From a virus (taxonomy: Duplodnaviria; Heunggongvirae; Uroviricota; Caudoviricetes): DNA of 64,000 nt. This document shows positions 9,988-47,087 of the stretch, piece by piece. The stretch is from IMG/VR virus record IMGVR_UViG_3300028887_000002, positions 212,278 through 276,277 of that record, one strand, 5' to 3'. How positions within the stretch are numbered: position 1 is the first letter of the stretch; each line of letters begins with the position of its first letter. The position numbers and the translations under genes are program-made. The notes below the pieces were generated by a model, which worked only from the letters and a program-made list of their open reading frames with translations, was not told the DNA's origin and did not search any database.

Positions 9988-10025
9988 TGTTTTCGGATAT
10001 TTATACTTAGTAAAACTTATACGAT

Positions 10026-10436: not shown

Positions 10437-10448
10437 TCTTTTGAGGTT

Positions 10449-12569
10449 ATGGCTACCAGTAAGGAGATGAAGGAGAAGACATTGGCTACTATTGATGGTG
10501 CGCTGTGTGTTTTGGACAAGTTACCGAGGCTTGACCCGACCAATATCGACATATCATTCAATGCATCGGTAAACCCGTTTGAACTTCTTCTTGATATGCT
10601 GAAGCGTACAAGGGGATATGACGGGATGATTGAGATACTGTCAAAGATAATTGGTTGGTCGGTGGACGCATTGGAACCCATAGTCAAGGCATTGATAATT
10701 TCAAACCTCAAGTCTTATTTCACCTGTAGCATAAACCCAATAATACCCGACAGGCTGTTGGAGGACGGATTTGTCTTTGACTTGAAAAAGATTGACATAA
10801 ACGGCATAATGAACTATTCTCCTATAAGTTCAAGAGCAAAGTTGCCGTACTACGATGATAATCCTGGCAAATATATGTACTTTGGTTGTGAGGATTTTGA
10901 AACCACCGATGACCTTATAAACGCCACCGACTTTGACGCATTCTTGTGGTATGTGAAGAACTGTACCACGGACAGACAAGTTTGGTTGGGGGTTGACTTA
11001 CTTAAGGCTAACCAAATATCAGGTTCTCCGAGGCCAAATTCAAAATTTACCAAGCAACGCAAGTCAGATGGCATTGTGACGCTTGAATATAACGGGCGTT
11101 CATCGGGGTTGACTAAGGCTATGGGGGAAGCATATAATATTCCACCAGCAACACTTAACACCCAAGTCCCGTTCAACAACTGCATACATTTGTTCATAGG
11201 AAATGTACTGAAAGTTCCAGAAAATGAAGTACAGGCGCTTTATAGTACAATACCGATGGTTAGACGTAATATTAGTGACTTACATAACACCATTGATAAG
11301 GCTAGAGATTATATCAGTGAAATAGAAGAGACTTTAAAAGAACTGAAAAACGACAAGAACCTTACGGCAGAGGAACTGAAAGAGAAGGAAAACTTCTGCA
11401 ATGCAGACATCTCCAACCTCAGAACTGCTATAAAGGCAATGAAGGGAACGCGCCGTAATGATACATCAGTCCAAGATGTTATGGGTAACATATTAGTTCC
11501 AGACGGGGATACGCAGAAACTTCTTCCTTTACAATCAATAAACACCGAACTGGTTATACCGACATCAATAGTCGAAACAAGCATAATTGAAGAGGAGAGG
11601 TATTTAAGACAAGCGGTTCAATCGGAACAGACCCAAGCCAACAACGGAATGTATCGTCCGATTGAAATGAACTACTACTACCGCAAGCCTTTATTCCTGT
11701 TCAACTACGACTATGTAATGTCATTGAAGATATTTGACAAGAAGGTTGTTACCGCACAGTTGGTTGATGCGTTGACGCAATGCTTTACCGTCAATATGTC
11801 GTTGTCCTACGAGGAGGCTCTTATCCGTGCGGAAGTGGAACGGATGGTAAATGATATTGTTGAGAGTGATGACACCTATGTGAACGACTGTTTCTTTACG
11901 TTCGCCAACGATACCTACAATGATATGCTGGAGACCACGCAGATGAACCATATGGGTATTCATACGGACAGCAATGGAAACGGACGTGTTATTGACTATA
12001 GTAGCATAATGGATGCTCTGAACCAAGTAAGCGAGGCTGCCACTGAAAACGATATGAGTACTGCAATAGAGGGTGTGTTGAGTGTTGCTTCAGCCTCATT
12101 GTTAAGTATAGATGAAACTAGGGAGCGAGATTTCAAGGCTGACATTACATTGATTGAAAGTTTTATGACAAATCTTGCTGCTGTGCTGGTAAGAGCGTTG
12201 ATTTCACCCAAACTATATATGCTGATGGCTGTAAATATGCGTGTTATGGGTGATGCGAACCCCAACTTCGATGTCGGTAACTTCATAAGGATGAATAAGA
12301 ACATGATGGTTTCGCTTATCCGTTCCATAAGGGATGAACTCATTAGGCTTATAATGAATGAGGTTATGTCCATCCTTAAGGATATTGCTGAAAGTGTTAT
12401 GGCAAAGTTGACGGTTGAACAGTTCCAGTACTACAAGAACCTGCTTGCAAGTTGCATTGAATGCTTCAGACTGTTCGGTACTGGCATCAGCGACTGGAAT
12501 ATGGATAATGTTGATTACGCTGACATCTATGAGACTGACGAGCCTGAACCACAACCAAATAACTGCTAA
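10449..12569 (+). CDS. large virion structural protein, probably a baseplate or tail component (706 aa)
   Basis: Long ORF immediately upstream of the small paralogs and the gp5/gpV-like hub gene. Function inferred from context only. Confidence 0.45.
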   Translation: MATSKEMKEKTLATIDGALCVLDKLPRLDPTNIDISFNASVNPFELLLDMLKRTRGYDGMIEILSKIIGWSVDALEPIVKALIISNLKSYFTCSINPIIPDRLLEDGFVFDLKKIDINGIMNYSPISSRAKLPYYDDNPGKYMYFGCEDFETTDDLINATDFDAFLWYVKNCTTDRQVWLGVDLLKANQISGSPRPNSKFTKQRKSDGIVTLEYNGRSSGLTKAMGEAYNIPPATLNTQVPFNNCIHLFIGNVLKVPENEVQALYSTIPMVRRNISDLHNTIDKARDYISEIEETLKELKNDKNLTAEELKEKENFCNADISNLRTAIKAMKGTRRNDTSVQDVMGNILVPDGDTQKLLPLQSINTELVIPTSIVETSIIEEERYLRQAVQSEQTQANNGMYRPIEMNYYYRKPLFLFNYDYVMSLKIFDKKVVTAQLVDALTQCFTVNMSLSYEEALIRAEVERMVNDIVESDDTYVNDCFFTFANDTYNDMLETTQMNHMGIHTDSNGNGRVIDYSSIMDALNQVSEAATENDMSTAIEGVLSVASASLLSIDETRERDFKADITLIESFMTNLAAVLVRALISPKLYMLMAVNMRVMGDANPNFDVGNFIRMNKNMMVSLIRSIRDELIRLIMNEVMSILKDIAESVMAKLTVEQFQYYKNLLASCIECFRLFGTGISDWNMDNVDYADIYETDEPEPQPNNC

Positions 12570-28223: not shown

Positions 28224-28796
28224 ATGGAAATACTAGTTAAAGAATTTTGTGATGGTTACGGACGGAATGTCAAAATCCCATCAGATGTTCTTTCCAAGGC
28301 GATTGAACGTTATAAAACTGAAACTAACAAATTGGAGAATAGTTTTGGTTGTTTGTTAGAATACAGAAAACTTCCATTACAAATGTCGGTTTCTGATATT
28401 AGTCATAAAATATCATCAATTGAACAAAACGGAGATAATAGTCTAATATGTAAGATTGAGACATTCAAATCGCCTCTCAATGTTTTGGATGAAATATTAG
28501 AAAACGAACCCGAAACACTTATGCCAGTAGTAAGCGGTTGGAAGGATGAAAATGGTGAATATAATATTCATTCAATAAATTTCGTACCAAATGTCACGGA
28601 AAATCAATTTGATTGCAAATACCAAGGCAGACTGGTCAATCAGGGAATGACATTATGCTTTGCTGATGAGGATGTCAACTTCCCGAACTGTTCGGAGGAT
28701 TGTCCTAAATATAAAAAGTACGAACCAAAAGAACCTAAATACACTACGGATGAGAATGGCAATGTAGTAATTGACTTGGTTGACGAAAATAATTAA
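28224..28796 (+). CDS. hypothetical protein (190 aa)
   Basis: ORF. Confidence 0.5.
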   Translation: MEILVKEFCDGYGRNVKIPSDVLSKAIERYKTETNKLENSFGCLLEYRKLPLQMSVSDISHKISSIEQNGDNSLICKIETFKSPLNVLDEILENEPETLMPVVSGWKDENGEYNIHSINFVPNVTENQFDCKYQGRLVNQGMTLCFADEDVNFPNCSEDCPKYKKYEPKEPKYTTDENGNVVIDLVDENN

Positions 28797-28809
28797 AAAA
28801 AGTGAATTA

Positions 28810-29793
28810 ATGGAAATTATTCAAACAACTTTCAATTTCACCCCGACAATTACCTTCATTGACTTGTTCGCTGGCATAGGCGGATTTCGCAAGGCGCTTG
28901 AAAGTCTTGATTGCAAGTGTGTGTTTTCATCGGAAATTGATAATGATGCAAGACAGACATATCTGACAAATTACGGAGACCTTCCGTCTGGCGACATAAC
29001 GTTGGAAGAAACAAAAGCCTTGATACCAAAGGACGTTGATATTGTTTGTGGAGGTTTTCCCTGCCAGGCTTTCTCAATAGCAGGACTGCGTAGAGGTTTT
29101 GAGGACACAAGAGGAACTTTATTCTTTGACGTAGCAGAAATCGTGAGTACACACAAGCCAAAGGTTATTTTCCTTGAAAACGTCAAGAACCTACTATCGC
29201 ATGACAACGGCAACACCTTCAAGGTTATAAAAGAGACTTTGGAAAAATTGGGATACAAAGTCTACTATAAGGTGATGAATGCAATGGAATACGGAAATGT
29301 ACCACAAAACAGGGAACGCATATACATTGTAGCGTTCGAGCCGACAAAAGTACCCAACTACGAAAAGTTCAAGTTCCCCGAACCACTTCCTCTGACAAGA
29401 ACTGCTATGGATTGCTATGACAAACTGGATGATATTTCATCAAAATACTACTACACCGATAAATCCCCTGTCTATAACGACCTCGTGGCTAATATGAAAG
29501 ACAAGACATCCGTCTACCAGTGGAGACGTGTCGGTGAAATAAGGGAGAACAAGCACAAGGTCTGTCCTACGTTGCTTTCCTCTATGGGGTGTGGTGGCAA
29601 CAAGGTTCCATTAGTCATTGATGATAGGGGGATTAGGAAATTCACACCTACGGAATGTTTGAAGTTTCAAGGCTATGAGGATTTCAAGTTTCCCAATACA
29701 ATGTCAGATAGCGTGAAATATAGATTGATAGGAAATTCGGTGGTGGTTCCACTGATAAGACGGATTGGCGAAAATATTATCGAAGTTTTTTAA
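28810..29793 (+). CDS. DNA (cytosine-5)-methyltransferase (Dcm-like)
   Basis: Motif I FIDLFAGIGGF, motif IV GFPCQAFS and motif VI ENVKNL. Start taken at the ATG at 28810 after the upstream stop. Confidence 0.85.
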   Translation: MEIIQTTFNFTPTITFIDLFAGIGGFRKALESLDCKCVFSSEIDNDARQTYLTNYGDLPSGDITLEETKALIPKDVDIVCGGFPCQAFSIAGLRRGFEDTRGTLFFDVAEIVSTHKPKVIFLENVKNLLSHDNGNTFKVIKETLEKLGYKVYYKVMNAMEYGNVPQNRERIYIVAFEPTKVPNYEKFKFPEPLPLTRTAMDCYDKLDDISSKYYYTDKSPVYNDLVANMKDKTSVYQWRRVGEIRENKHKVCPTLLSSMGCGGNKVPLVIDDRGIRKFTPTECLKFQGYEDFKFPNTMSDSVKYRLIGNSVVVPLIRRIGENIIEVF

Positions 29794-30471: not shown

Positions 30472-30828
30472 ATGAAAACTATAGAAAAGGTACAGAAAGA
30501 ACTGAAGAAGTATGAAAAGACCAAGATGGTCGATGGAAACGAAGTGGTTTATTACACGCCAGGTGCTGAGAAGTGCAAGGAGGCGATAAAGTTTCTCACC
30601 TACAATAACGAGCACAATCATTATGATGATGAATGGCTTAAGAAGGAATTGGAAACCATTGAGAAGAAACGCAAGGTTCTAAGTGAAAGGTGTAAGTCAA
30701 TGGAAGAAATCAACATCCACGATGGTGTGAAAACCATAAGACACGGTTACGAGGAACAGTACAAGGATGTCTGTGAAAAACTTAGGGATGTTAACCGTCA
30801 GAGAAGATTCCTAAAATATTTAATGTAA
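30472..30828 (+). CDS. hypothetical protein (118 aa)
   Basis: ORF. Confidence 0.5.
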   Translation: MKTIEKVQKELKKYEKTKMVDGNEVVYYTPGAEKCKEAIKFLTYNNEHNHYDDEWLKKELETIEKKRKVLSERCKSMEEINIHDGVKTIRHGYEEQYKDVCEKLRDVNRQRRFLKYLM

Positions 30829-30832
30829 AAAA

Positions 30833-30870
30833 TATTTGGTAGTTTGAAAAATATTGTTTTTCTTTGCACC
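30833..30870 (+). promoter_or_regulatory. Bacteroidota-type promoter with conserved AATATTTGGTAGTTTGAAAAAT upstream element
   Basis: TTTG at 30835..30838 and a TTTCTTTG -7-like element about 20 nt downstream. Followed by an AGAAAGGAAT Shine-Dalgarno-like sequence and the ATG at 30894. Confidence 0.5.
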
Positions 30871-30893: not shown

Positions 30894-31580
30894 ATGACAG
30901 ACTTTAGAAACTATGCAGTGAAGGGGCTTGGCATTAGTAGCAATGCCTTCGACCAGTACACAAAAAGTGTAAGTGCAAGATACGGAACAAGTTTCGTAAA
31001 CCCCACAATCATTGAGGAGAGACAACTGAACGTTGCACAAATGGATGTGTTCTCACGCCTTATGATGGACAGAATCATATTCATTGGCACCGACATTGAC
31101 GACTACACAGCAAATGTTGTAGAGGCACAACTTTTATATTTAAGTAGCGTTGATGAGAACAAGGACATATCATTGTACCTCAACACCCCTGGCGGTAGCG
31201 TATATGATGGACTTGCAATCTACGACACAATGCAGTATGTGAAATGTGATGTATCAACCGTATGTATGGGTATGGCCGCTTCAATGGGGTCAATTCTCCT
31301 ATCGGCTGGAACCAAGGGCAAACGATATGCATTGCCACACTCACGTGTCATGATACATCAGCCACTCGGCGGTATTTCACAGGCACAATGCTCCGACATT
31401 CAGATTACAGCCAACGAAATCCAAAAGTGCAAGGACGAACTCTTCAAGATATTGTCCGAGAATACTGGACAGCCGTTGGAGAAAATAAATACCGATGGCG
31501 ACAGGGACTTCTGGATGACGGCGAACGAGGCATTGAAATATGGTATTATTGATGAGATTTTTGGAAAGCAGGGAAAATAA
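30894..31580 (+). CDS. clpP: ATP-dependent Clp protease proteolytic subunit ClpP
   Basis: YLNTPGGSVYDGLAIYD, the Ser nucleophile in GMAASMGS, His in MIHQPLGG and DRDFWMTANEALKYGIID. Near-canonical bacterial ClpP along its full length. Confidence 0.85.
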   Translation: MTDFRNYAVKGLGISSNAFDQYTKSVSARYGTSFVNPTIIEERQLNVAQMDVFSRLMMDRIIFIGTDIDDYTANVVEAQLLYLSSVDENKDISLYLNTPGGSVYDGLAIYDTMQYVKCDVSTVCMGMAASMGSILLSAGTKGKRYALPHSRVMIHQPLGGISQAQCSDIQITANEIQKCKDELFKILSENTGQPLEKINTDGDRDFWMTANEALKYGIIDEIFGKQGK

Positions 31581-31615: not shown

Positions 31616-32449
31616 ATGAACACAAGAAGATTAATCACAATCGGAATCATTTTAGCGGTAGTTATTATTCTCATGTCATGCTTTATGAGATGTTCAAAGG
31701 TTGACAGCGCAGAGGTTGGTATCAAGTTCAACAAGTTGAGCCTTACCGAACAGGGAACATTGGACGCAACAGTCGTTACGGGTTATACGTGGTACTGCCC
31801 AGTCACAACAGACCTCCATACCTATCCAGTGTTTGTACAGAGAAAGAACTACACACCATTTACGGTTAATACGAAGGACGCAGCCGAATTCACGATGGAC
31901 CCGACAATCGCCTACCAGATAAACCGTGACCGTGCCATTGACATCTTCCAGAAATACCGCAAGTCATTGGAAGAAATCGAAGACGGATATATGAGAACTG
32001 TTATCTATGACGCATACCGTATCACTGCCAATAGATATACATCCGACAGTATTATGGGCAATCGCGCCCGTTTCGAGAGCGAAGTACGCATTATGCTCGA
32101 CACAGCACTTTCTAACGAAGGATTTATGGTAACTGAGTTCACTTCGCAAATAACACCGCCAGCATCACTCCGCGCAATGATAGACTCGAAGAATGCTGCA
32201 ATACAGTCAGCACTTAAAGCCGAAAACCAAGTGAAGGAAGCAGAAGCCAATGCAAAGATTGCTGTGGCTAAGGCTGAAGGTGAAGCCCAAGCGTTGAAGA
32301 TTAAGGCTGACGGCGAAGCATATTATAACAGAACGGTAGCCGCCTCGTTGAACAGCATCCTTGTCGAACAATACGCAATTGAAAAGTGGAACGGACAGAT
32401 GCCACAGGTCACAGGCAACGGCGGAATGCCATTCATCAACTTGAAGTAA
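31616..32449 (+). CDS. SPFH/Band-7 (stomatin/HflC-like) membrane protein
   Basis: N-terminal TM helix, SPFH core and C-terminal Ala/Glu-rich coiled coil (AEANAKIAVAKAEGEAQALKIKADGEA). Confidence 0.75.
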   Translation: MNTRRLITIGIILAVVIILMSCFMRCSKVDSAEVGIKFNKLSLTEQGTLDATVVTGYTWYCPVTTDLHTYPVFVQRKNYTPFTVNTKDAAEFTMDPTIAYQINRDRAIDIFQKYRKSLEEIEDGYMRTVIYDAYRITANRYTSDSIMGNRARFESEVRIMLDTALSNEGFMVTEFTSQITPPASLRAMIDSKNAAIQSALKAENQVKEAEANAKIAVAKAEGEAQALKIKADGEAYYNRTVAASLNSILVEQYAIEKWNGQMPQVTGNGGMPFINLK

Positions 32450-34657: not shown

Positions 34658-37600
34658 ATGGAAGAAAAAAACATTTATCATTCAACCAAGGAAGACATCC
34701 AGAGTTTCCTTTCGGGTTCCAACCCGTTCGAGCACATAATCAAGATTGAGTGCGACAATACCGACAACGAGGTAACGATAATCTACCGTGACGAGAACTA
34801 CAACAAGCAGATGATGAAGGACGACTTCAAGCCTTTCTGTTGGTGTACCCAGAGGGTTGCCCGTGAAATGTATAATGGTGACCGTAACAAGTTAAAGTCC
34901 GCAATGGCAAAGTATGGAATATCTTGCAGGGGGCTTGTAACAGCAAGGTCTGACGGGAGAGTTCCCGAAAGGATGGCAAACGGCTTCAACATAATGTTCT
35001 TCGCCACCGAGAAGATGTCCTACCGCGACTTTATGAAGTTCTTCAAGGAGGCTGGCGTACCAATCTATCCGAGGGAAGGCGACAAGAACTACGACAGGGT
35101 TGACTATGTGGTTGTTGCCCCAGCCGAGCAGTATATGATACAGACGGGCAAACGGTTGTTCAAGGGGTATGAAGACTACGATGAACTGCTTAGGATGGAG
35201 TGGGACTTGGAAACCGAGGGACTTGACCCTAACAAGTGTATGATTAGCCAGATAGGTATCAGAACCAACCACGGCTACGAGAAGATTATCCCGATAGACG
35301 GCGAGGGTGACGAGAAATACGACAACGAACTGGAAGGCATACTACAGTTCTTCTCAATCATCAAGGAACTTTCCCCCGACATACTGACAGGCCACAACAC
35401 CGAGAACTTCGACTGGAACTTCATTGACGTGCGACTTAGGGTGCACGGGCTTGAAATGTCGGAGGTAAGCAAGGACTACTTCCCAAAGGGTGTATATAAG
35501 AAAGACAAGGAGAATGTACTGAAACTCGGCGGTGAAATAGAATACTTCAAGCCGACAGTGATGTGGGGAACCAACATAACGGATTCGCTGTTCGCAGTAA
35601 GAAGGGCACAGGCGCTTGATTCCAATATGAAGAAGGCCGACTTGAAATACGTTACCAAGTATTCAGACCTCAACAAGCCGAACCGCGTCTATGTGCCTGG
35701 CAAGAAAATCAACGACACGTGGGTTGACAACAGTGAGACCTATGCCTTCAATGACGAGAACGGCATTTGGTTCAAGGTGGATGACAAGGTTATGTCCCGT
35801 ACATATATAGAGGTTGATGGGAACGGTGACGATATAAGGTCTACGAGGTTTGAGTTGAACGGCAAGAGCCTTCTTGACAAGCAGGACGGTGTGACATATC
35901 AGATGGTAAGCGGACGGTATATCGTTGAACGATACCTGCTGGACGACCTTTATGAGACGGACAAGGTTGAAGCACGTTACAACCAGTCGAACTATCTAGT
36001 GGGGAAGATGCTACCAGTATCATACGAGAAGATGTGTACGATGGGTACTGCTACAATATGGAAGTACCTTATGTTGGCGTGGAGTTACGAGCACGGGATT
36101 GCAATACCAGAACCAACCAAAAAAAGACCCTTCACGGGCGGGCTAAGTCGTTTAATAACAGTGGGTTACAGTAAAAATGTAGTCAAAAATGACTACAACA
36201 GCCTTTATCCTAGCATTATACTTACATTTAAAATCAAGACCGAAGTTGACATTACAGACGCAATGTTGTCGTTGCTTGAATATATCCTAACCCAGCGCGA
36301 ATACTACAAGGGGTTGAAGAGCAAATATGGCAAGGAGGCGAACAAGTTGGAAGACCAATTGTCAACGATGGACAAGTCTCACCCCGACTACAAGAAACTA
36401 AGCGAGAAGAAAAAGGAATGTAAGCGACTTAAGAGTCAGTATGACAAGATGCAACTACCGCTCAAGATTGTTGGGAACAGTTTTTTCGGAAGTTTTGCCG
36501 CGTGCGGAACGATATTTTATTGGTCAGATATGGACTGTGCCGAAAAGACAACCTGTATCGGCAGACAGATGTTTAGACTTCTTATCAGTTGGTTTAAACA
36601 TTTAGGTTATCAACCAATCGTAGGTGATACCGATGGTATAAACTTCAAGGTCGCCGACAACCTTAGGTACACAGATGAACACCCCTACATATCTAACGGC
36701 AAGGGGCGTAATACTGAAAAGGGTAAGGCGTACACAGACGTAAGGGCTGATGTCGCGGAGTTCGAGGACTTGTTCCTGACGGGCAAGAACGGCCTTGACA
36801 TTGACGAATTCGTTCCAGCCAGCGTATATCTGAAGCGAAAGAACTATGCCGACCTTCTTGATGACGGCAAGATGAAACTCGTAGGCAACACGTTGAAGTC
36901 AAAGAAGATGCCGTTGTATATAGAGAAGTTTATAGATACTGCGATGAGAATGCTCCTGGAGGGCAGGGGCAAGGATTTCCTTGACTATTACTACGACTAC
37001 ATTGAGAAGATATACAACCTACAGATTCCGTTGAACGAGATAGCCTCAGTCGGCAAGATTAAGACCAGTATAGACGATTACAAGAAGAACTGCAAGACGC
37101 TTACGTCCGCAGGTAACAAACGTGCAAGACAGGCATGGTACGAACTTGCAATCAAGCACAACCTCAGCGTAAACATGGGCGATACAATCTACTACATCAA
37201 CACTGGCGACAAGAAGTCGTCTTCGGACGTGCAGAGGCTGACCAAATACTACCGCAAGAACCTGTTCGGCGAGGATGATGTTACAAAGGATATTACCAAG
37301 GAATACAAGACCGCAGTCAAGAACGGTACTGTTCCAAAGTCAGTTAAACTGGCGCAGTATGTAGCCGAGAACCACAAGGACATCGAGGAGAGGGACGAAC
37401 TCATATTCAACTGCGTGATGATACCCAATACAATAATGGAGGACGAGGAAACGGAGCACCTCTGCGACGAAAACTTTGAATACAACGTTGATAAGTACAT
37501 TGACATGTTCAACAAGCGCATATCGGGTCTTGCAGTATGCTTCCACCCGTCAATAAGGTACAGGGTGGACGAGAATGGAAAAACAGTCAATAACCTGTTC

Positions 37601-38083
37601 GTTTCCAACCCATCCGACAGAAAGTACTTTACCGAGCAGGAGTGCGAACTGGTTGCAGGTATGCCGTTAGACCCCAAAGACCAGGACAGTTACGAGGATA
37701 TAATGCGAATGGAGGACAAGGAGATTAGGTTCTGGACTTCAGTCAACGAGATACCGCCTTATGTTGAAGAATGCGGTATGAACTGGGACGAGATTGTAAG
37801 TGACTACAACGTAAGGCAGGAGGAACTGAGAAAGGAAGGAATACGCCAGGAGGTTGAATTATACAATCTAATCATAGACAATATGACACAGGAACAGATT
37901 GACGAGTTCGAGGATGAGGGGACATTGCCTGAAACCCTGTTGAATATCGTAGAGGAAGGAAAGGGCATGGAATTCGTATCAAAGAAGTACGGAGTCGCAA
38001 TCGGTACAATATACGACATAATTGACCGCGAACCCGTCGGAGATGGTGACAGTACACCGATTCCATCGTTCCCTTCAAATTAG
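34658..38083 (+). CDS. family B DNA polymerase with 3'-5' exonuclease domain (1141 aa)
   Basis: Exo I WDLETEGL, motif A DYNSLYPSII, motif B KIVGNSFFG and motif C VGDTDGI. Confidence 0.9.
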   Translation: MEEKNIYHSTKEDIQSFLSGSNPFEHIIKIECDNTDNEVTIIYRDENYNKQMMKDDFKPFCWCTQRVAREMYNGDRNKLKSAMAKYGISCRGLVTARSDGRVPERMANGFNIMFFATEKMSYRDFMKFFKEAGVPIYPREGDKNYDRVDYVVVAPAEQYMIQTGKRLFKGYEDYDELLRMEWDLETEGLDPNKCMISQIGIRTNHGYEKIIPIDGEGDEKYDNELEGILQFFSIIKELSPDILTGHNTENFDWNFIDVRLRVHGLEMSEVSKDYFPKGVYKKDKENVLKLGGEIEYFKPTVMWGTNITDSLFAVRRAQALDSNMKKADLKYVTKYSDLNKPNRVYVPGKKINDTWVDNSETYAFNDENGIWFKVDDKVMSRTYIEVDGNGDDIRSTRFELNGKSLLDKQDGVTYQMVSGRYIVERYLLDDLYETDKVEARYNQSNYLVGKMLPVSYEKMCTMGTATIWKYLMLAWSYEHGIAIPEPTKKRPFTGGLSRLITVGYSKNVVKNDYNSLYPSIILTFKIKTEVDITDAMLSLLEYILTQREYYKGLKSKYGKEANKLEDQLSTMDKSHPDYKKLSEKKKECKRLKSQYDKMQLPLKIVGNSFFGSFAACGTIFYWSDMDCAEKTTCIGRQMFRLLISWFKHLGYQPIVGDTDGINFKVADNLRYTDEHPYISNGKGRNTEKGKAYTDVRADVAEFEDLFLTGKNGLDIDEFVPASVYLKRKNYADLLDDGKMKLVGNTLKSKKMPLYIEKFIDTAMRMLLEGRGKDFLDYYYDYIEKIYNLQIPLNEIASVGKIKTSIDDYKKNCKTLTSAGNKRARQAWYELAIKHNLSVNMGDTIYYINTGDKKSSSDVQRLTKYYRKNLFGEDDVTKDITKEYKTAVKNGTVPKSVKLAQYVAENHKDIEERDELIFNCVMIPNTIMEDEETEHLCDENFEYNVDKYIDMFNKRISGLAVCFHPSIRYRVDENGKTVNNLFVSNPSDRKYFTEQECELVAGMPLDPKDQDSYEDIMRMEDKEIRFWTSVNEIPPYVEECGMNWDEIVSDYNVRQEELRKEGIRQEVELYNLIIDNMTQEQIDEFEDEGTLPETLLNIVEEGKGMEFVSKKYGVAIGTIYDIIDREPVGDGDSTPIPSFPSN

Positions 38084-38923: not shown

Positions 38924-40411
38924 ATGGAAAATAGTTTTACATTCATAGATTTGTTTGCTGGTATTGGCGGATTTCACATAGCACTAAGTAACGTCGGTGG
39001 TGAATGTGTTGGTTATAGTGAAATAGCACAGGACGCAATAGAAGCATACTGCAAGAATTTTAATGAAAGCAAGGAAGATAATCTTGGTGATATAACAAAG
39101 TTAGAAACTTTACCCTGTCATGATTTTCTTACTGCTGGAGTTCCGTGCCAAAGTTGGTCGTGCGCTGGCAAGAAACTTGGATTTGACGACCAGCGCGGGC
39201 AGTTGTGGTTTAACACGCTATCTCTCTTGGAAACATCCAAACCAAAGGCGTTTATATTCGAGAATGTGAAAGGGCTGACCGAACCAAGGAATAAAGACGC
39301 ATTAGAATATATTATGAACCGTATTCGTGAGGCAGGATATTATGCAAACATTTATATACTCAATGCCTATGATTATGGTGTGCCGCAGGCTAGAATCCGT
39401 CTCTATATAGTCGGTTTTGATGACGAGAAGTATTACAAGCGGTTTAAGTTAGGCGCTACTTGTCCAGGAAGCGTACAACTTGGCGATATTCTTGATGACT
39501 TCAGAAGTAACGATACAAAAATTGGCAATAGCGTTAGCCTGGGACAGAGTTTATCAAGTAACGAAGATGGCATTAATGACTATTTTCTGTTTAACGACAT
39601 GAGGGGTGGTCAAACGACAATACATTCATGGGACATACAGGAGACTACTGACAGGGAGAAGAGCATATGCAATCTCCTGCTTAAAAACAGAAGGAAGGCT
39701 TATTATGGCAATTTGGATGGCAATCCATTATCTTTTGAACATTTCAAGGAACTAGATGAGACGATTACCAACGACGAACTTGAAGAACTGGTTAATAAGC
39801 ATATTTTCAGAAAAGTCCCATATACTTATCAAATTATTGATATTGGAAAGACTGAAACTGACTTTGAAAGACTCTTGACAAGCCTTTCAATTGACGATAT
39901 CATAAAGGTATATGACGTTAAGAACAATCGTGCAGTGAAAAAGACGGGAATAAATGTAGTCAAACAATTGTCCGATATGGAGAATAAGGGCATAGTGAAA
40001 TTAGTTGAAACAAGATACGATTTCAAAAATGCAAAGGCAAGCACTGGCATTAATGGGGTTAACCGAATTTTTCTACCTACATCAAAGATATATCCGACAC
40101 TCGTCGCAAGTGATTCCGCTGACTACATCTCGACAGTCGGCATAGAAGTCGGTCCACCCGAAGCATTCAAGAGAAAGTTTCTTGAAAAGGTTTATGCTCC
40201 GCATAATTTTAGAAAGATAACCAAGGAAGAGGCTTGCAGAATACAGTCGTTCCCCGATAATTTCATATTACCCGAAACACGGGCAAGATGGATGAAACTG
40301 CTAGGCAACAGCGTATGTCCAAAGGTAGTTCAGATGATTGCCCAAAGCGTAGTTGATACAGGTATTTTTAAAAAAAAAGTAAACTTCACTGCCCAATTAC
40401 GAACGTTTTAG
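38924..40411 (+). CDS. DNA (cytosine-5)-methyltransferase with large variable target-recognition region (495 aa)
   Basis: FIDLFAGIGGF, GVPCQSWS and ENVKGL. Confidence 0.85.
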   Translation: MENSFTFIDLFAGIGGFHIALSNVGGECVGYSEIAQDAIEAYCKNFNESKEDNLGDITKLETLPCHDFLTAGVPCQSWSCAGKKLGFDDQRGQLWFNTLSLLETSKPKAFIFENVKGLTEPRNKDALEYIMNRIREAGYYANIYILNAYDYGVPQARIRLYIVGFDDEKYYKRFKLGATCPGSVQLGDILDDFRSNDTKIGNSVSLGQSLSSNEDGINDYFLFNDMRGGQTTIHSWDIQETTDREKSICNLLLKNRRKAYYGNLDGNPLSFEHFKELDETITNDELEELVNKHIFRKVPYTYQIIDIGKTETDFERLLTSLSIDDIIKVYDVKNNRAVKKTGINVVKQLSDMENKGIVKLVETRYDFKNAKASTGINGVNRIFLPTSKIYPTLVASDSADYISTVGIEVGPPEAFKRKFLEKVYAPHNFRKITKEEACRIQSFPDNFILPETRARWMKLLGNSVCPKVVQMIAQSVVDTGIFKKKVNFTAQLRTF

Positions 40412-40444: not shown

Positions 40445-40469
40445 AAATGTTTAACTAAAAGAAAGGAAT
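40445..40469 (+). promoter_or_regulatory. conserved 25-nt 5' leader AAATGTTTAACTAAAAGAAAGGAAT with strong Shine-Dalgarno-like GAAAGGA; identical copy at 49839..49863
   Basis: Exact 25-nt identity between the two sites. Both precede an ATG GCx start. Confidence 0.5.
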
Positions 40470-40475
40470 AATATT

Positions 40476-41609
40476 ATGGCAAAGGAAACTGAAAAGATGG
40501 AAAACAAGTTTGAATTGTATTCACCGAAGGAAATCAAGGCTCACCTTGACAACCACGTAATCGGACAGGAAGAAGCAAAGAAGATACTGTCGGTTGCAAT
40601 ATACAACCACTACAAGCGTATGCTTTCGACGAAGTATGACATCGGCAACGACAATCCAGCATACAAGGATGTGACAATAGAGAAGTCCAACATCATACTG
40701 CTCGGCAACACTGGTACTGGAAAGACATTCCTCGTACAGACAATTGCAAAGATGCTCGGTGTACCCCTGTTCATACAGGACTGCACCAAACTGACCGAAA
40801 GCGGTTATGTGGGAGAGGATGTAGAGAACTGCGTTGGCGGACTGCTTCGTGCCTGTGATTATGACGTTGAAAAGGCTGAAATGGGCATAGTAATACTTGA
40901 CGAGGTCGATAAGATTGCAAAGACCACAAAGGGCAATATGTCAATAACCCGTGACGTTGGTGGTGAAGGTGTACAGCAGGGTCTGCTGAAGATAGTTGAA
41001 GGAAGTGTTGTAGGCGTACCACCCCAGGGCGGTAGAAAGCACCCAGAACAGAAACTCGTGGAAGTCGATACACGCAACATATTGTTCATAGCACTTGGCG
41101 CATTCCCAGGCATCGACAAGGAGATTGAAAGACGTTTCAACAAGACAAGCGTTGGTTTCAGGAACTCTTCAGACACCAAGACAATATCAAACCTCACGCA
41201 GGACACAATCCTCGGCAAGGTAAAGGGCGATGACCTCAAGAACTTCGGACTTATACCAGAATTCGTAGGCAGGTTCCCAGTTATTACGCACACCAACCCG
41301 TTGAAGGTGGAGGATATGGTAAGGATTATCACCGAACCGCAGAACAGTCTTCTGAAGCAGTACCAGAAACTGATGGACATGGATAACGTTGACCTTGTGT
41401 TTACTGACGACGCCATAAGGATTGTCGCCGAGGAAGCGTTGAAGTGTGAAACGGGTGCAAGAGGTCTCAGGGGCATAATGGAACAGATACTCACCGACGT
41501 GATGTATGAATATGCCGAAACAAAAAAGAATACCAAACTCAAGATTGACAAGGCGTTCGTTGAAAAAATCCTCGGAGAGAAGGAAACACTTTACGGTGAA
41601 ACGGCTTAA
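40476..41609 (+). CDS. clpX: ClpX-like AAA+ unfoldase lacking the N-terminal C4 zinc-binding domain
   Basis: Walker A GNTGTGKTF, pore-1 loop GYVGEDVE, Walker B IVILDEVDKI, VGF in place of the IGF ClpP-docking loop, LIPEFVGRFPV and sensor-2 TGARGLR. Begins at the region that corresponds to about residue 60 of E. coli ClpX. Confidence 0.9.
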   Translation: MAKETEKMENKFELYSPKEIKAHLDNHVIGQEEAKKILSVAIYNHYKRMLSTKYDIGNDNPAYKDVTIEKSNIILLGNTGTGKTFLVQTIAKMLGVPLFIQDCTKLTESGYVGEDVENCVGGLLRACDYDVEKAEMGIVILDEVDKIAKTTKGNMSITRDVGGEGVQQGLLKIVEGSVVGVPPQGGRKHPEQKLVEVDTRNILFIALGAFPGIDKEIERRFNKTSVGFRNSSDTKTISNLTQDTILGKVKGDDLKNFGLIPEFVGRFPVITHTNPLKVEDMVRIITEPQNSLLKQYQKLMDMDNVDLVFTDDAIRIVAEEALKCETGARGLRGIMEQILTDVMYEYAETKKNTKLKIDKAFVEKILGEKETLYGETA

Positions 41610-41636: not shown

Positions 41637-41680
41637 GAAAGGACGGTTGCTAATATTAACTTCCGTCCTTTTTTTGTTTT
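41637..41680 (+). terminator. rho-independent terminator (AAGGACGG ... CCGTCCTT plus TTTTTTGTTTTT)
   Basis: 8-bp stem and T-run. Confidence 0.6.
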
Positions 41681-41729
41681 TCCGCGATTTAGATTTGTTT
41701 AGATTTCTTCGTCTCCTTCAAAATCAAGG

Positions 41730-43280
41730 TCAATCTTTCTTCTTCCATACATACTTGAACAGCCCGCAGTTCCATACACGGTCGTAGCCCAACTCACGGG
41801 TCATCTCGGTCTCGGTCATTGTAAGGGGAAGTCCGTATTTCTTATGGAGTATCTGCTTTCTAAACAAAAACTTATGGTATCTCTTGCATTCCCCTGTCTT
41901 ATAATATGTATAGTCTGGTTCGGTAATACTTTCAAGTTCAAATCCAAGATGTGTATATAGATTATCCGATGGGTTCAATGTCCACCTCCTGTCAGCAAAC
42001 GACTTTACTATTGTCGGGTTATAGTTCTTTATAAAATAAGAAAACAACTTTCCACCAACACCCTGACATATATATCGGCTGTCAGTCGCAAACCTCACAA
42101 GATTCCATTCTTCACCATTCTTTGTAAAAGACATAACCCCAATGAGAATATTTTCATAGTATGCACCAACATGGATGGTAGAATTCGCAAAACCCTGTAT
42201 GTGGTTGGCGTTTAAAAATGCTTCAGCGGTCTTCTTATCAAGAACACTTATATTGCATTTCCTTCCGCCAACTTTTGGCTTTGAATCATCATCAATTCCA
42301 AGCGAGTGGCATATCTTGTCGAATATTATATCCTTATGTTGTACATATTCATCCTCGAATATCTGAATAAGTCCGACACCCTTGCTATTGGCCAATAGTG
42401 TCTTGTTAAGGTGATATGACTTGTCCTTTCCGCCGAACCATTCCGAATGCCATCTAAGACCGTTATATTCAATCCCCACATTGAAACTGGGTATATATAT
42501 GTCAACCTCCAGTCCGTCAAGCAACGATTTGTCGTGTAATATAACCTTATCCTCACCCAACTTGTTGCATAGCATTTCATATATTTCAAGTTCGGCGTAT
42601 GAAAGGTGTTTCCCGCATTTAGGACAACCCTTCCCCTGCAATAACGCATCAGGATTCATTTTAAACACTCCGTGGGGCTTCCCGTTGGAACCAATCTTGT
42701 TACATATTATACTGACATCAATTTGGCTTGCCTTGTAGTCGACCAATGAATAGTCGTAGTCATCGTCCTTATGAACAGCCTTGCACTTCTCAATGAATGT
42801 TTCATTGTCATATCTGTTCCTTTCAGCATTCCTGTCAATTGTCAATCTCTTATGCGAACAACCTTTCAGATGCACCACTGGTTCCTGCCAGAATTCGCCA
42901 TACTCATTACCATCCGCATCAAGTTCACGACATATTATACAGACTGGTGTATGCATATTGACATATTCAACCTTAGAATAGTCAAGTTTCTCCCCCTTAT
43001 GCACCTGCTTGAAGCGTTCAACAACTTCCTCCGTTGTAAGCGACTTAGACCTTGAAATCTTATTGCCACGTTTCCTTGGGTGCGACTGCCCCTTGAACAG
43101 GTTGTTTGGTGTTGCCTTGAAAGCACCATATTCCTTACCGTTCTCGTCAAGGTCACGGTCTATTATAATGACGTTTGTTCGGTTGTTCACATATACGACC
43201 TCCGAAAAGTCAAGGTTCTCGTTGGGGTGGGACGCCTTGACCTTCTCAATGAACTCGTCCATTGTCATTCGCCTACTCAT
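41730..43280 (-). CDS. multi-domain nuclease-like protein, paralog 1 (three N-terminal ~55-aa Cys/His repeats, PD-(D/E)xK Vsr/DUF559-like core DIYIPS..IEYNG..WH, conserved C-terminal tail)
   Basis: Internal repeats FIEKxKxVH..DYSxVxY...IIC...G..HG.F..P..LL.G.GCPKCG. The C-terminal 40 aa are almost identical to those of the next gene (LHKKYGLPLTMTETEMTRELGYDRVWNCGLFKYVWKK). Confidence 0.55.
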   Translation of the reverse strand: MSRRMTMDEFIEKVKASHPNENLDFSEVVYVNNRTNVIIIDRDLDENGKEYGAFKATPNNLFKGQSHPRKRGNKISRSKSLTTEEVVERFKQVHKGEKLDYSKVEYVNMHTPVCIICRELDADGNEYGEFWQEPVVHLKGCSHKRLTIDRNAERNRYDNETFIEKCKAVHKDDDYDYSLVDYKASQIDVSIICNKIGSNGKPHGVFKMNPDALLQGKGCPKCGKHLSYAELEIYEMLCNKLGEDKVILHDKSLLDGLEVDIYIPSFNVGIEYNGLRWHSEWFGGKDKSYHLNKTLLANSKGVGLIQIFEDEYVQHKDIIFDKICHSLGIDDDSKPKVGGRKCNISVLDKKTAEAFLNANHIQGFANSTIHVGAYYENILIGVMSFTKNGEEWNLVRFATDSRYICQGVGGKLFSYFIKNYNPTIVKSFADRRWTLNPSDNLYTHLGFELESITEPDYTYYKTGECKRYHKFLFRKQILHKKYGLPLTMTETEMTRELGYDRVWNCGLFKYVWKKKD

Positions 43281-44958
43281 TGCTGACTCCTTTCTTCCAT
43301 ACGTACTTGAATAGTCCGCAGTTCCAGACGCGGTCGTAGCCCAACTCGCGGGTCATTTCGGTTTCGGTCATCGTGAGGGGTAGGCCGTACTTCTTGTGGA
43401 GTATCTGCTTGCGGAAGCCGAACTTGTGGAAACGCTTAGTTCCGTCAATCTTCTTGTTGTAGTAGTAATAGTCAGGCTTAATTGTCTGAACCATATTGAA
43501 ACCGAGTTTGGTATAAAGGTTATCCTCCGCCCACATAGTCCAGCGTCTGTCGGCAAATGTCTTTACTTCATCTACATTATAGTTTCTGATGAAATGTTTG
43601 AAGAGTTTACCGCCCACGCCTTGGCATACTGCGTCATATAGGCTAGCATATCTTGTGAGATTCCATTGACCTGGAGTTTCTTCAATAAAAGTCATAACGC
43701 CAACCAACGCATTATTATAGTATGCACCAAGATATAAACTTGAATTAGCAAAACCTTGTATATGGTTTGTTTCAAGGAATATTTTGGCAACATCCTTGCA
43801 TATTTCCGTTACAGTGCATTTTCGGCCAGGAATAACCGTTTGCCCTTCTATTCTTACGTTTAAGAGGTGACGTATCTTTGATAATACTAAATTCTTGTGA
43901 TGGATGAACTCGTCATCATATATATGTATTAGTCCAATACCGAGTTTGTTACACTCAATCGTCTTGTTTAAGTGATAGTTCCTGTCCTTGCCGTACTTTT
44001 CAGTATGCCACATATTTCCATCATATTCAATGGCAATCTTCTTTGAAGGTATATAAATGTCAAGTTCCCTACCTTTTAGGATTTTCCTGTCTGCATAACA
44101 ATCAAATCCCAATGACCTGATAAATTCCATTATTTCTAGTTCCGCACTGCTCTGACGCTTGAAGGTCATATTTTCATTAACAGCCGTCACCTGTTTAACG
44201 AGCAAGTCGTGGAATTCCTTTGATACAAGTGGAGTATCGTACAATTCTCGATATCTCAACTTATCCAGTCCATGCTTTTTCAAATGGACATTGTCAATAC
44301 GTGCGAGTTTTTCTCCGCATACTTGACATACAACAAATTTGTCAGGGTCGGTTTCCATTGAACGGTCTAAGGATTTATTTACTAACGCGAAATAAGGACG
44401 TTCTTCAGGGTGTTCTTCAAGATATTGAAACTTTGTCATATTATGGGTGTTCCTTAAATGCACCTCAAATGCACCACTCTTGTTATCCAAGTCTGTTGTA
44501 GTCCAATCACAATAAGGGCATTTTTTGGCTTCTTTGTCCTTTACTAATTTTACTTTCAGCCATTGTTCCCACCAGTAGTTTCCTGTACGTCTGTAATACA
44601 TTTGACGTTCATGTAACGACGGAGTTGGAATACCATACTCCTTCTCAATATAAGTTGTTAATACACCGCCCTTATTTCCAATATCAATACTTTCAAAGTC
44701 AGTTTTTTCGTCATACACGACATAGTGTGTCATATTGTCAGGCTCAGGGTATTTTTCAGTATGATAATCCTCCACGACATAATCGTATTTGAAACCTTGA
44801 TTACCCTTCTTTTTAATAGGTATATTGTTTCGGTCAAGAATTTCACGGATTCTTTTCTTTCCGACATGATGTTTTAAGGCTAAAGTTTCAATACGTTCTT
44901 CACCATTTATATATTCTTTGCAAATTTCAGTTTCATCCAATGATGTTTTCGCTTTCAT
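43273..44958 (-). CDS. multi-domain nuclease-like protein, paralog 2 (561 aa; ELDIYIPSKKIAIEYDGNMWH core, GNAT-like CQGVGGKLF motif)
   Basis: Same architecture as paralog 1. About 85% nucleotide identity over the 3' ~130 nt. Confidence 0.55.
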   Translation of the reverse strand: MKAKTSLDETEICKEYINGEERIETLALKHHVGKKRIREILDRNNIPIKKKGNQGFKYDYVVEDYHTEKYPEPDNMTHYVVYDEKTDFESIDIGNKGGVLTTYIEKEYGIPTPSLHERQMYYRRTGNYWWEQWLKVKLVKDKEAKKCPYCDWTTTDLDNKSGAFEVHLRNTHNMTKFQYLEEHPEERPYFALVNKSLDRSMETDPDKFVVCQVCGEKLARIDNVHLKKHGLDKLRYRELYDTPLVSKEFHDLLVKQVTAVNENMTFKRQSSAELEIMEFIRSLGFDCYADRKILKGRELDIYIPSKKIAIEYDGNMWHTEKYGKDRNYHLNKTIECNKLGIGLIHIYDDEFIHHKNLVLSKIRHLLNVRIEGQTVIPGRKCTVTEICKDVAKIFLETNHIQGFANSSLYLGAYYNNALVGVMTFIEETPGQWNLTRYASLYDAVCQGVGGKLFKHFIRNYNVDEVKTFADRRWTMWAEDNLYTKLGFNMVQTIKPDYYYYNKKIDGTKRFHKFGFRKQILHKKYGLPLTMTETEMTRELGYDRVWNCGLFKYVWKKGVSNE

Positions 44959-45124: not shown

Positions 45125-47068
45125 CTATCTCAATTCGAGAGTTGACCAGTGTACCAAACCGTCGCAACGGATTGCACCGTAGTAGCGGTTGTTAACGAGT
45201 TTCTTCGCGTAACGGGTCATGATACCCTTTACTGGTGCAAAGTTGAAAGGATTTGTTACAGTTGGGGTCAAAGCCATCGGGATATAAGGTGCATAGATGT
45301 AACCAGTATCCAAGAGGCTTGTTCCGTGGTGACCCATGATGAGTGACCAGTAAGGTGCATACGGGTCAACGATTACTTTGTAACGTCCCTGCAACGAACC
45401 AATCTTTTCGATACCCATGTTGTACTGTTCGCTTTCAGCAGAAGCGTCAGTTACGTGGAAGTATTCGAGGTCGTTAAGAACTGCGCTGATTTCAGCCGAT
45501 ACAACGATGAAGTTTGCACCGCCTTGAAGTGTCGACTTTTGGATTTGTGCCGAAATCATGTTAATCTTGGTCATAAGGGTCTGGTTCCAGTCCTTCTGAG
45601 TGTAAACGGTAGAAGTTGTACCAAGTCTCTGCCATCCGTTGTAGTCCCAACGAGCCTGCCATGGAGCAGCCTTACGAAGGTCGCGGAGGATTTCACGGTC
45701 AAGTTCTGCTGCAATCTGTTCAGAAAGGATTGCGGTAAGTTCTGCTTCAGCATCAATGTTGTGGAAAGCAGATACGTCCTGTGCCAATTCAGGTGACCAG
45801 GTTGCTCTCAACTTTCTTTCTTCAACAGCAACGGTAACTGAAGTGAGTTCGAACGATACTTCGCCCATTTCGGTTTCGAGTTCGAGTGAATCGTACTGAA
45901 TCCAAGCGATGTCGAACAACTGGCTTCCGTCAGTAGCGTTGTCAGTGTTAGGACTGCCGTTGGTGAACAATGCGCTAGCGTCAACACCGATATAGCCGTC
46001 AATAGTACCACCCTGTGCAGTGCAAGGCTTTGTGAGGTCAAGTTCGATATACAACTTACCCTGAGCATCACAGATGTCACCGTAGTTTACGGTGCCATGT
46101 CCGTACTTCTGAGTAACAACTCTGAAAGGAACAGATTCGTTCTGCTTGAAAGACGAGGTCTTCAAGGTGTCGCTACCTTCAACGGCAACTGGAGCGATTG
46201 CGTTCTTGGTGATAACCTTCAATGAAGCGAGGAATGCTTCGGTATCCATTTCGTTTCCGTCAGGACCTGTCAGACGACCTGCGTTGTATGAAGCGAAACC
46301 GCTAACTTCGAGGATAACAGATGCAACAGCACCGTTAAGCAACGGAAGTTCTTCTTCGCTTGCTACTGGAACGAATTCGCCGTTTTCAGCAAGTCTTACG
46401 ATGTCAGCCTTACCAACCTTGATGGTTGCCTTACCCTTCGAGTTATCATAGAGGAAATCATCATAGAACAAGTCGTAGAGCGATTTCTTCATATAGGTGG
46501 TAACTTCGGGTTCAGTAGTTCTGCTGCTGGTCTGAACTGGGTCAACTACTGTGTCGTCAAGATAGTAGCGGTTGTACTGCTCGTTGTATCTTGCATCCAG
46601 TGGAGTTGCTGGCCAAGTACCTGTTGGTTCTTCAGCGTTCTTGTCATAGAATCTGTTGGTTCTCTTGTAACCCATGAGACCAGTGTGGCTTCCTTGGTTA
46701 CCATCAACCATTTCGTCGTAATCCCACTTGCGTTCGCTGGTTACTGGACGGATGTAGAACAACTTACCTACTGGGAGGTTCATTGCCTGTACTGATACGA
46801 TGTCGTTAGCAAGGAGTTTGCTGAAGACACGTCTAATCAACGGGAACACTACGGTTTCGAACGAACCTGAGTTATCCGATGCAGTTGCTTCGTAGATAAG
46901 GTTCTTTGCCTGGTTTTCGTAAAGTGTTGCCATATTTTCCTTGATGTGACCGTTAAGGCCGTTAAGGAATCCGAGCTTATCCCATCTCTTCTGGATATCT
47001 TCGCGGATTTTCTTTTGTGCATCGTATTCAATTGAGCCGACTGCACCTGATGTTAAAAGTTCTCTCAT
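45125..47068 (-). CDS. major capsid protein, T4 gp23-like
   Basis: Multiple long blocks align to T4 gp23: VQAMNLPVGKLFYIRPV / VQPMNSPTGQVFALRAV; WSPELAQDVSAFHNIDAEAELTAILSEQI / YSIELAQDLRAVHGMDADAELSGILATEI; GANFIVVSAEISAVL / GNFIIASRNVVNVL; IYAPYIPMALTP / IYYAPYVALTP; NFAPVKGIMTRYA / NFQPVMGFKTRYG. Start taken at the ATG at 47066..47068. Confidence 0.9.
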   Translation of the reverse strand: MRELLTSGAVGSIEYDAQKKIREDIQKRWDKLGFLNGLNGHIKENMATLYENQAKNLIYEATASDNSGSFETVVFPLIRRVFSKLLANDIVSVQAMNLPVGKLFYIRPVTSERKWDYDEMVDGNQGSHTGLMGYKRTNRFYDKNAEEPTGTWPATPLDARYNEQYNRYYLDDTVVDPVQTSSRTTEPEVTTYMKKSLYDLFYDDFLYDNSKGKATIKVGKADIVRLAENGEFVPVASEEELPLLNGAVASVILEVSGFASYNAGRLTGPDGNEMDTEAFLASLKVITKNAIAPVAVEGSDTLKTSSFKQNESVPFRVVTQKYGHGTVNYGDICDAQGKLYIELDLTKPCTAQGGTIDGYIGVDASALFTNGSPNTDNATDGSQLFDIAWIQYDSLELETEMGEVSFELTSVTVAVEERKLRATWSPELAQDVSAFHNIDAEAELTAILSEQIAAELDREILRDLRKAAPWQARWDYNGWQRLGTTSTVYTQKDWNQTLMTKINMISAQIQKSTLQGGANFIVVSAEISAVLNDLEYFHVTDASAESEQYNMGIEKIGSLQGRYKVIVDPYAPYWSLIMGHHGTSLLDTGYIYAPYIPMALTPTVTNPFNFAPVKGIMTRYAKKLVNNRYYGAIRCDGLVHWSTLELR

Positions 47069-47087
47069 TATAATCAATTTTTTTATT

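Follow-up and report, generated by a model that had tools for sequence, protein, structure and literature searches.

A phage clpX gene without the zinc-binding domain and its candidate ClpP partner in a 64-kb stretch of huge-phage DNA

ClpXP is among the best-understood proteolytic machines, and the C4 zinc-binding domain (ZBD), which forms the N-terminal part of canonical ClpX, is the route by which cellular adaptors control it. What a ClpX deprived of this domain could do for a phage, and with which peptidase, is the question raised by a gene in the virus record IMGVR_UViG_3300028887_000002 (positions 212,278 to 276,277; this whole stretch of 64,000 nucleotides is the window hereafter, and coordinates without a locus name refer to it). 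The gene, clpX (40476–41609, + strand), is an open reading frame (ORF) from ATG to TAA for a ZBD-less ClpX-family AAA+ unfoldase of 377 aa. Judged from its sequence, it encodes an intact ClpX-type AAA+ unfoldase that comprises the motor module only. We think it fairly probable that this unfoldase, together with a phage ClpP, the host ClpP or both, makes up a ClpXP-type protease that is independent of adaptors.

A ClpX motor module without the zinc-binding domain

The assignment to ClpX is supported by profiles, alignment and structure prediction. Both NCBIfam equivalog cutoffs for ClpX are exceeded (NF003745, 497.2 bits for a cutoff of 359; TIGR00382, 472.1 bits for a cutoff of 370.75), with the match restricted to positions 50–401 of 418 in one profile and 56–407 of 414 in the other. 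The NCBIfam hslU model gives 206 bits, far under the HslU cutoff of 362. Pfam detects AAA_2, AAA and ClpB_D2-small, i.e. a single AAA+ module with a large and a small domain. The top matches in the PDB are ClpX chains (E=1e-110 to 1e-103), with alignments beginning at chain residue 58–60. The AlphaFold2 model has a mean predicted local distance difference test score (pLDDT) of 82.3 and a predicted template modelling score of 0.81. When this model was compared with the PDB using Foldseek, the top matches were all ClpX chains of ClpXP complexes, with template modelling scores of 0.74–0.88, and included the E. coli entry 8e7v, named DNClpX.ClpP. Low confidence is limited to residues 1–9 (pLDDT below 50), residues 151–161 (the site of the pore-2 loop), residues ~221–240 (the surroundings of the docking loop) and the last six residues.

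The elements expected of a working motor are all in place in the alignment, as the earlier note on this DNA had stated for the GYVG, RKH and sensor motifs. These are, all on the + strand, the Walker A motif GNTGTGKT (residues 77–84; 40704–40727), in which G77, T79, G80, G82, K83 and T84 are invariant; the pore-1 loop GYVG (residues 110–113; 40803–40814), invariant in 29/29 ZBD-less and 135/135 ZBD-containing ClpX; the Walker B motif ILDEVD with D142 and E143 (40890–40907); the RKH loop (R187, K188, H189; 41034–41042), an exact RKH that is invariant throughout the ZBD-less clade described below; the arginine finger R266 (41271–41273) in the motif GRFPV, where G265, R266 and P268 are invariant; and the sensor-2 motif GARGLR with R329 (41454–41471). 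The tripeptide VGF (residues 226–228; 41151–41159) occupies the ClpP-docking position, aligned to I268-G269-F270 (IGF) of E. coli ClpX, and the low pLDDT of its loop is expected of a flexible loop. An insertion of about 8 residues follows NHYKR. The same note had called the protein near-identical to bacterial ClpX. This is fair for the motifs and too strong for the whole protein, the overall identity being 48% to E. coli ClpX and 55% to one canonical ClpX of Bacteroidales.

The ZBD itself is missing. No Pfam match to zf-C4_ClpX (PF06689) was found in the protein, and residue 8 aligns with residue 58 of E. coli ClpX, in the linker right past the ZBD, so that the proposed start at the end of the bacterial domain holds. 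A short leader (residues 1–13; 40476–40514, + strand), aligned to the E. coli post-ZBD linker, stands in place of the ZBD and linker. An upstream in-frame start that would restore the domain was looked for; an in-frame TAA (40452–40454) lies 21 nt 5' of the ATG. Among the stop codons that end window ORFs of at least 200 codons, TAA occurs 20 times, TAG 15 times and TGA 8 times. Since each of the three terminates long ORFs the window uses the standard genetic code, and stop recoding therefore cannot add an N-terminal extension to clpX. Nor was a ZBD found anywhere in the 64 kb, either by tblastn with the E. coli domain or by a six-frame scan for CxxC...CxxC. A ZBD hidden in an upstream extension, behind an alternative code or in a separate gene of the window is ruled out by the TAA, the stop usage and the six-frame search. 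The claim of a phage ClpX without a ZBD is thus borne out by the alignment, the profiles, Pfam and the 64-kb search alike.

These observations also bear on the most trivial explanation, that the gene is a 5'-truncated pseudogene, a misplaced start, a product of an alternative code or bacterial contamination. Some grounds for it exist. Lak megaphages, which carry ClpX too, recode TAG, and several database records of "phage" ClpX are plainly bacterial. One of them, filed as "Acinetobacter phage MD-2021a" (L003, CAKLQH020000005.1), holds tig-clpP-clpX together with a TonB-dependent receptor gene and is a bacterial chromosome filed as phage, a caution for any count of phage ClpX. Against an artefact stand the upstream TAA with the use of all three stops, the lack of a ZBD in six frames, and the occurrence of the same architecture in 119/120 closest homologues. 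In addition, the exact ClpX sequence of the window was found on a 339,275-bp contig (JGI metagenome 3300031993, Ga0310696_10000014), which makes its carrier a huge phage, and the flanking phage genes are conserved in a relative, L001, where the order polB-methylase-clpX-...-capsid is as in the window and ClpX is 96% identical. The two clpX genes differ by 0.39 synonymous (dS) and 0.018 nonsynonymous (dN) substitutions per site, giving a dN/dS of 0.046; clpX is under strong purifying selection. An artefact is for these reasons highly improbable.

The ZBD-less clade and its carriers

Is the lack of the ZBD a peculiarity of one phage? It proved to be the property of a whole conserved clade, and other megaphages keep the domain. 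When a set of 5.8 billion clusters was searched, 119 of the 120 nearest proteins (56–96% identity, lengths of 353–407 aa) had neither PF06689 nor CxxC pairs; the exception is an aberrant sequence of 606 aa with internal duplications. About 25 of 82 ClpX loci from IMG/VR lack the ZBD, among them all loci whose ClpX shares 55% identity or more with that of the window, and many of these loci are on viral contigs of 100–380 kb. When the cores of 164 ClpX were placed in a neighbour-joining tree (no support values), all sequences shown to be without a ZBD grouped as one clade, with a sister group that contains Bacteroidota ClpX and Lak-like phage ClpX. The one "ZBD-less" leaf that falls elsewhere, L065, has an ORF cut off by the end of its contig and so may or may not have a ZBD. 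The clade is also marked by substitutions: DCTKL for DATTL, FIA/GxGAF for FICGGAF (FIALGAF in the window protein) and GRFP for GRLP. The idea that all phage ClpX lack the ZBD was rejected, as phage G, Lak-A, Lak-B and Phosso all have it. To go by the sequences gathered, most carriers of the ZBD-less lineage are huge phages of Bacteroidales from the gut and rumen, and a few copies are present in metagenome-assembled genomes (MAGs) of Bacteroidales. No description of this clade was found in the open-access papers and preprints searched, where phage ClpX occurs only as an annotation.

The docking tripeptide is kept throughout. An [ILV]-G-[FY] form is present in 29/29 ZBD-less ClpX of the collected loci, and among ZBD-less homologues from the database it could be placed in 118, where it reads IGF in 85, VGF in 24, IGY in 6 and VGY in 3. 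The earlier note had singled out VGF in place of IGF. VGF is indeed at the docking position, and it is no meaningful deviation: it is found in 7/135 ZBD-containing and 7/29 ZBD-less ClpX of the collected loci, and VGF, IGF, LGF and MGF all occur across ClpX. By the counts in both groups, VGF as a special feature was discarded in favour of normal variation of IGF.

A second candidate feature was the C-terminus. Most ZBD-less ClpX end in KK[AVS][AVS] (KKAV in 40/119), a tail that resembles the MuA C-motif-2 degron RRKKAI (PMC12723719). Its reading as a clade-specific self-degron was dropped, because ends in small residues are common in ZBD-containing ClpX (73/119, with AA in 36 and VA in 22) and the window protein ends in GETA (41592–41606).

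In relatives on contigs of 100–386 kb the neighbours of clpX are TerL and portal genes in conserved synteny, and in the huge-phage contigs L007, L011–L016, L024 and L035 the ZBD-less clpX keeps synteny with the genes for TerL and for a ClpA/B-like double AAA+ protein of 824 aa, which points to vertical inheritance within the phage lineage. The ClpA/B-like gene was located in L007 (14176–16650, − strand; AAA_lid_9 and ClpB_D2-small), a few kb from the ZBD-less clpX, in a block that in the huge-phage contigs also holds TerL and a T4-type portal gene. The 64-kb window holds no homologue of the 824-aa protein.

Bacterial genomes were scanned through GTDB (one genome per species) with the patterns F[IV]QDCTKL and ESGYVGED, typical of the window subclade. 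Of the best 80 loci, 76 hold a canonical ClpX that has the ZBD, in most cases with clpP as the immediate upstream neighbour, and 4 lack the ZBD; these counts are not a census, because the scan patterns bias the sample. The four are all from Bacteroidales or Bacteroidia MAGs, with the rumen named in at least three record titles. One ZBD-less copy, 77% identical to the window gene, was seen in an uncultured Bacteroidia (RUG14538; L131, 1776–5300) on a 1.39-Mb contig. It is surrounded by a type I restriction R subunit, UPF0227 and leucine-rich-repeat proteins and uncharacterised ORFs, a setting that resembles a variable or defence island; PADLOC gave no match for these neighbours. The loci L132 and L133 may be bacterial, or may be mis-binned huge phages.

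ClpP and the proposed protease

If the motor is intact, does it have a peptidase? A gene for a genuine ClpP lies 8.9 kb upstream of clpX on the same strand (30894–31580, +), in agreement with the distance of about 9 kb given before. It is the candidate ClpX partner, a peptidase of 228 aa read from the ATG, with an N-terminal extension of the Bacteroidota type before a ClpP core that begins at residue 37; a TTG at 30864 is an alternative start in the ORF list, and the ATG at 30894 is preferred. The product matches Pfam CLP_protease with 259 bits and the NCBIfam ClpP subfamily NF001368 with 287.6 bits (cutoff 249), and it scores 358.8 bits, just below the cutoff of 361, with PRK14514 over positions 1–219 of 221. 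The serine (GMAASMG), histidine (MIHQP) and aspartate (DRDF) motifs align with solved ClpP structures. A prohead protease was considered and ruled out, as the head-maturation model NF045542 gives 89.4 bits for a cutoff of 120 and the protein scores as a true ClpP.

Its closest cellular relatives are chromosomal ClpP of Muribaculaceae and Bacteroidales (64–68% identity), encoded in clpP-clpX-recQ loci in which ClpX has 421–422 aa and a ZBD. Because of this likeness the phage ClpP looks host-derived, and the phage host is probably a member of Bacteroidales.

The link between this type of ClpP and ZBD-less ClpX is closest in another contig, the bacterial, Bacteroidota-like 44-kb ENA contig k141_341385 (L125/L127), which carries the housekeeping genes rplU, rpmA and NIF3 and a gene for a protein sorted by the type IX secretion system. 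It holds the cluster clpX'(370 aa)-118 aa-117 aa-clpP(230 aa)-clpX'(375 aa), where clpX' stands for the ZBD-less form. The ClpP is 74% identical to that of the window and the ClpX' copies are 70–71% identical, with 67 nt between clpP and the second clpX'. This adjacency supports a partnership of this ClpP type with ZBD-less ClpX, and the cluster is the strongest contextual evidence that the two work together. The cluster is part of an island (L125, 7565–19061) between the gene for the type IX-sorted protein and rplU, together with genes for a 775-aa membrane protein, a CAP-domain protein and others; the 118-aa and 117-aa ORFs of the cluster are of unknown kind. The island may represent an accessory Clp module, or else a piece of phage DNA that was captured.

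We can thus propose how the window proteins may act. The ZBD-less ClpX would form a hexamer whose RKH, pore-1 and pore-2 loops themselves recognise terminal degrons. Its VGF loops would dock on a ClpP tetradecamer, made of the phage ClpP (30894–31580), of the host ClpP (64–68% identical) or of both, and unfolded proteins would be passed into ClpP for degradation. Adaptors tethered to the ZBD, and substrates that depend on it, could not be used. During infection the phage would in this way raise the capacity for proteolysis, with substrates chosen more simply, by their degrons only, as the absence of the ZBD suggests. The precedent is a standard, active laboratory truncation of the E. coli protein: ClpX-deltaN with ClpP degrades Arc bearing lambdaO, OmpA, ssrA or MuA degrons (PMC12723719), which makes an adaptor-independent protease a reasonable mechanism. 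On this precedent, and with the clpP-clpX' adjacency of L125, the altered substrate selection put forward in the earlier note is a reasonable proposal. The ZBD (PF06689) is given as specific to the ClpX family and as the site for adaptors and some substrates (PMC9035409). To that extent its absence would free the enzyme from adaptors; the adaptor that had been named, SspB, has been described in proteobacteria and has no established bearing on hosts among Bacteroidales. We know of no ClpX adaptor established for the likely host group. That degradation would be redirected toward host proteins is a further step which finds no footing here, as nothing in the data shows it, and in the contigs of related huge phages the 10 kb around clpX yielded no ClpP.

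Several observations weigh against the proposed protease. The 8.9 kb between clpP and clpX hold the family-B DNA polymerase gene, a methylase gene and other genes, so that co-transcription is probably absent. A search of the 10 kb to either side of the ZBD-less clpX in the other huge-phage loci revealed no ClpP. Two IMG/VR scans for ClpP returned 0 contigs with a ZBD-less clpX, and these two scans together with an exact-DNA scan gave no contig shared by ClpX and ClpP; they used exact patterns, which a diverged ClpP can escape, and +/-10 kb of each contig was readable. Among the bacterial copies, L130 and L131 (from a Bacteroidales and a Bacteroidia MAG) have no ClpP in the fetched stretch, 10 kb around the gene for L131. 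Finally, the tree that defines the clade has no support values.

The same observations invite a different role, in which the ZBD-less ClpX is an unfoldase or chaperone independent of ClpP that remodels or takes apart complexes, for example in replication or virion assembly, or translocates unfolded proteins without degrading them, the phage ClpP having a separate role. ClpX is known to disassemble the MuA transpososome. Such a role agrees with the placement of ZBD-less clpX beside TerL, portal and other morphogenesis-side genes and away from any nearby ClpP in many huge phages, and with that of the window gene between a DNA methylase gene and the capsid-gene region. Roles of this kind have been suggested for jumbo-phage ClpX (PMC7824862), and both ClpX and ClpP of phage G were found by virion proteomics (PMC12484599). 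It is hard, however, to explain under this role why each ZBD-less sequence in which the [ILV]-G-[FY] tripeptide could be placed has kept it, when the tripeptide serves docking on ClpP. The phage moreover encodes a full ClpP with its catalytic motifs, the orthologues of the two genes are adjacent in L125, and ClpP would be supplied by the host anyway. We therefore regard a ClpP-independent role as rather unlikely, although it is the main rival.

Another possibility is that the protein interferes with the host machine. ZBD-less subunits would compete with host ClpX over the host ClpP, or else join host ClpX in mixed assemblies, and so blunt adaptor- or ZBD-dependent proteolysis, for instance that of phage proteins or of defence-triggering regulators; the benefit would not lie in new substrates. 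In favour of it are the 55% identity to a canonical Bacteroidales ClpX with all interface motifs conserved, the 64–68% identity of the phage and host ClpP, which makes cross-docking plausible, and the situation of the related copies in L131, where a type I restriction gene is the neighbour and the region has the look of a variable island. PADLOC, on the other hand, reports only generic AAA+ similarity, with weak matches to the P-loop region of the window ClpX (best IetA, 33 bits). Competition would also need no active motor, yet the ATPase and pore motifs are all under strong purifying selection. Interference is, in our opinion, improbable.

The adaptor-independent protease remains the reading that we prefer. 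A wider version of it, which we advance tentatively and consider doubtful as a whole, is that the ZBD-less ClpX is a "plug-in" unfoldase of huge Bacteroidales phages. It would be inherited vertically and would dock on host ClpP, and here also on an acquired ClpP, giving an adaptor-blind protease unregulated by the host that serves takeover of the cell; the bacterial copies (L125, L130, L131) would then be secondary captures into variable islands. If this is true, host regulators or defence proteins could be removed, or the turnover of phage proteins timed. In any case, a conserved, mostly phage-borne clade that does without the ZBD while all motor, pore and docking elements are kept amounts to the ClpX-deltaN experiment done by nature. 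Its existence suggests that huge phages of the gut and rumen supply an unfoldase of their own, in some cases along with a ClpP, to reshape the proteome of the infected cell. Confirmation would provide a tractable handle on host takeover by Bacteroidales jumbo phages, as well as a set of ClpX enzymes, minimal by nature, that could serve mechanistic studies and biotechnology.

The surroundings of the two genes deserve some description. Directly 3' of clpP, at a distance of 36 nt, is a gene for an SPFH/Band-7 membrane protein (31616–32449, + strand; PF01145 with 68 bits, weak similarity to HflK). The arrangement recalls the stomatin/NfeD operons, where NfeD is a ClpP-class protease. A Band_7 gene is also present in L133 (17418–18371), a Bacteroidales MAG locus, about 6 kb 3' of the ZBD-less clpX. 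PADLOC gave no match for the window ClpP or the SPFH protein. A conserved small adaptor beside clpP was considered and rejected, as the 118-aa ORF at 30472–30828 has no similarity to the 118-aa and 117-aa ORFs of L125. On the other side of the SPFH gene lies the gene for the family-B DNA polymerase (34658–38083). Two C5 cytosine DNA methylase genes are present, at 28771–29793 (+ strand) and at 38924–40411 (+ strand), the latter immediately 5' of clpX and coding for 495 aa with a large insertion inside the methylase domain.

Past the clpX stop, 29 nt downstream, a terminator-like hairpin can be read from the sequence (41638–41682, + strand): AAGGACGG, a loop of 16 nt, CCGTCCTT and then a T-run. 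It was missed by a consensus scan because its loop exceeds 8 nt. Two homing-endonuclease-like paralogues follow in tandem on the − strand (41730–43280 and 43273–44958; PHROG 559/3339, DUF723) and separate clpX from the capsid gene; they share 57% identity over 294 aa. The corresponding site of L001 has a single copy and an S-AdoMet-lyase-like gene, which indicates recent turnover of mobile endonucleases. The gp23-like major head protein is encoded at 45125–47077 (− strand; PHROG 138, E=8e-67), and Pfam Gp23 matches its L001 orthologue. With this head protein, the polymerase and the endonuclease-like genes, the window is recognisable as phage DNA. At the far end of the window, a 516-aa ORF (1163–2713, − strand) is 41% identical to a 377-aa protein encoded next to TerL on the 386-kb contig L007, which links the window phage to the L007 huge-phage group. 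The endonuclease at 41730–43280 also has 516 aa but bears no relation to the product of this ORF. At the nucleotide level no match to known phages was found, either for clpX or for the 24 kb around it.

Comparison with known systems

The nearest known likeness of the window protein is the E. coli ClpX-deltaN construct. The boundary is alike, since the construct comprises residues ~62–424 and the window ClpX starts at about E. coli residue 51–58, and both have the large and small AAA+ domains, GYVG, RKH, an IGF-type loop and the sensor motifs. They differ in that one is a laboratory truncation and the other a natural gene, with 48% identity, the clade substitutions and the insertion of about 8 residues. 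HslU has a related AAA+ core (PDB E=1e-44) and falls in the same ClpX/HslU clade, but the window ClpX is without the I-domain and has the ClpX-specific RKH and IGF-type loops.

A natural ZBD-less ClpX has been reported before in Myxococcus xanthus, where ClpX3 is a paralogue beside canonical ClpX (PMC11423568). It is a myxobacterial chromosomal paralogue, in contrast to the phage gene, and is likened here by its description only.

Huge-phage homologues are known from phage G (gp258), the Prevotella Lak megaphages and Sinorhizobium phage Phosso, whose ClpX are 46–56% identical to that of the window. Unlike it they keep the CxxC...CxxC ZBD, and they stand outside the ZBD-less clade in the tree. 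The clpX of Lak-A1 (L005, MK250016.1, ~10001–11989; with ZBD) has an in-frame insertion of about 320 aa right past Walker B (FLDE/C...GN/CDKIA, slashes marking its borders) that looks like an intein, and that of Lak-B is uninterrupted. In Bacillus phage G, clpP (gp257) is paired directly with clpX (gp258).

The canonical Bacteroidales clpP-clpX-recQ locus offers the closest cellular counterpart. Its ClpP, at 64–68% identity, shares the N-terminal extension of the window ClpP, and its ClpX core, at 52–55% identity, belongs to the closest cellular lineage in the tree. The host ClpX differs in having 421–422 aa with PF06689 and in being encoded immediately 3' of clpP.

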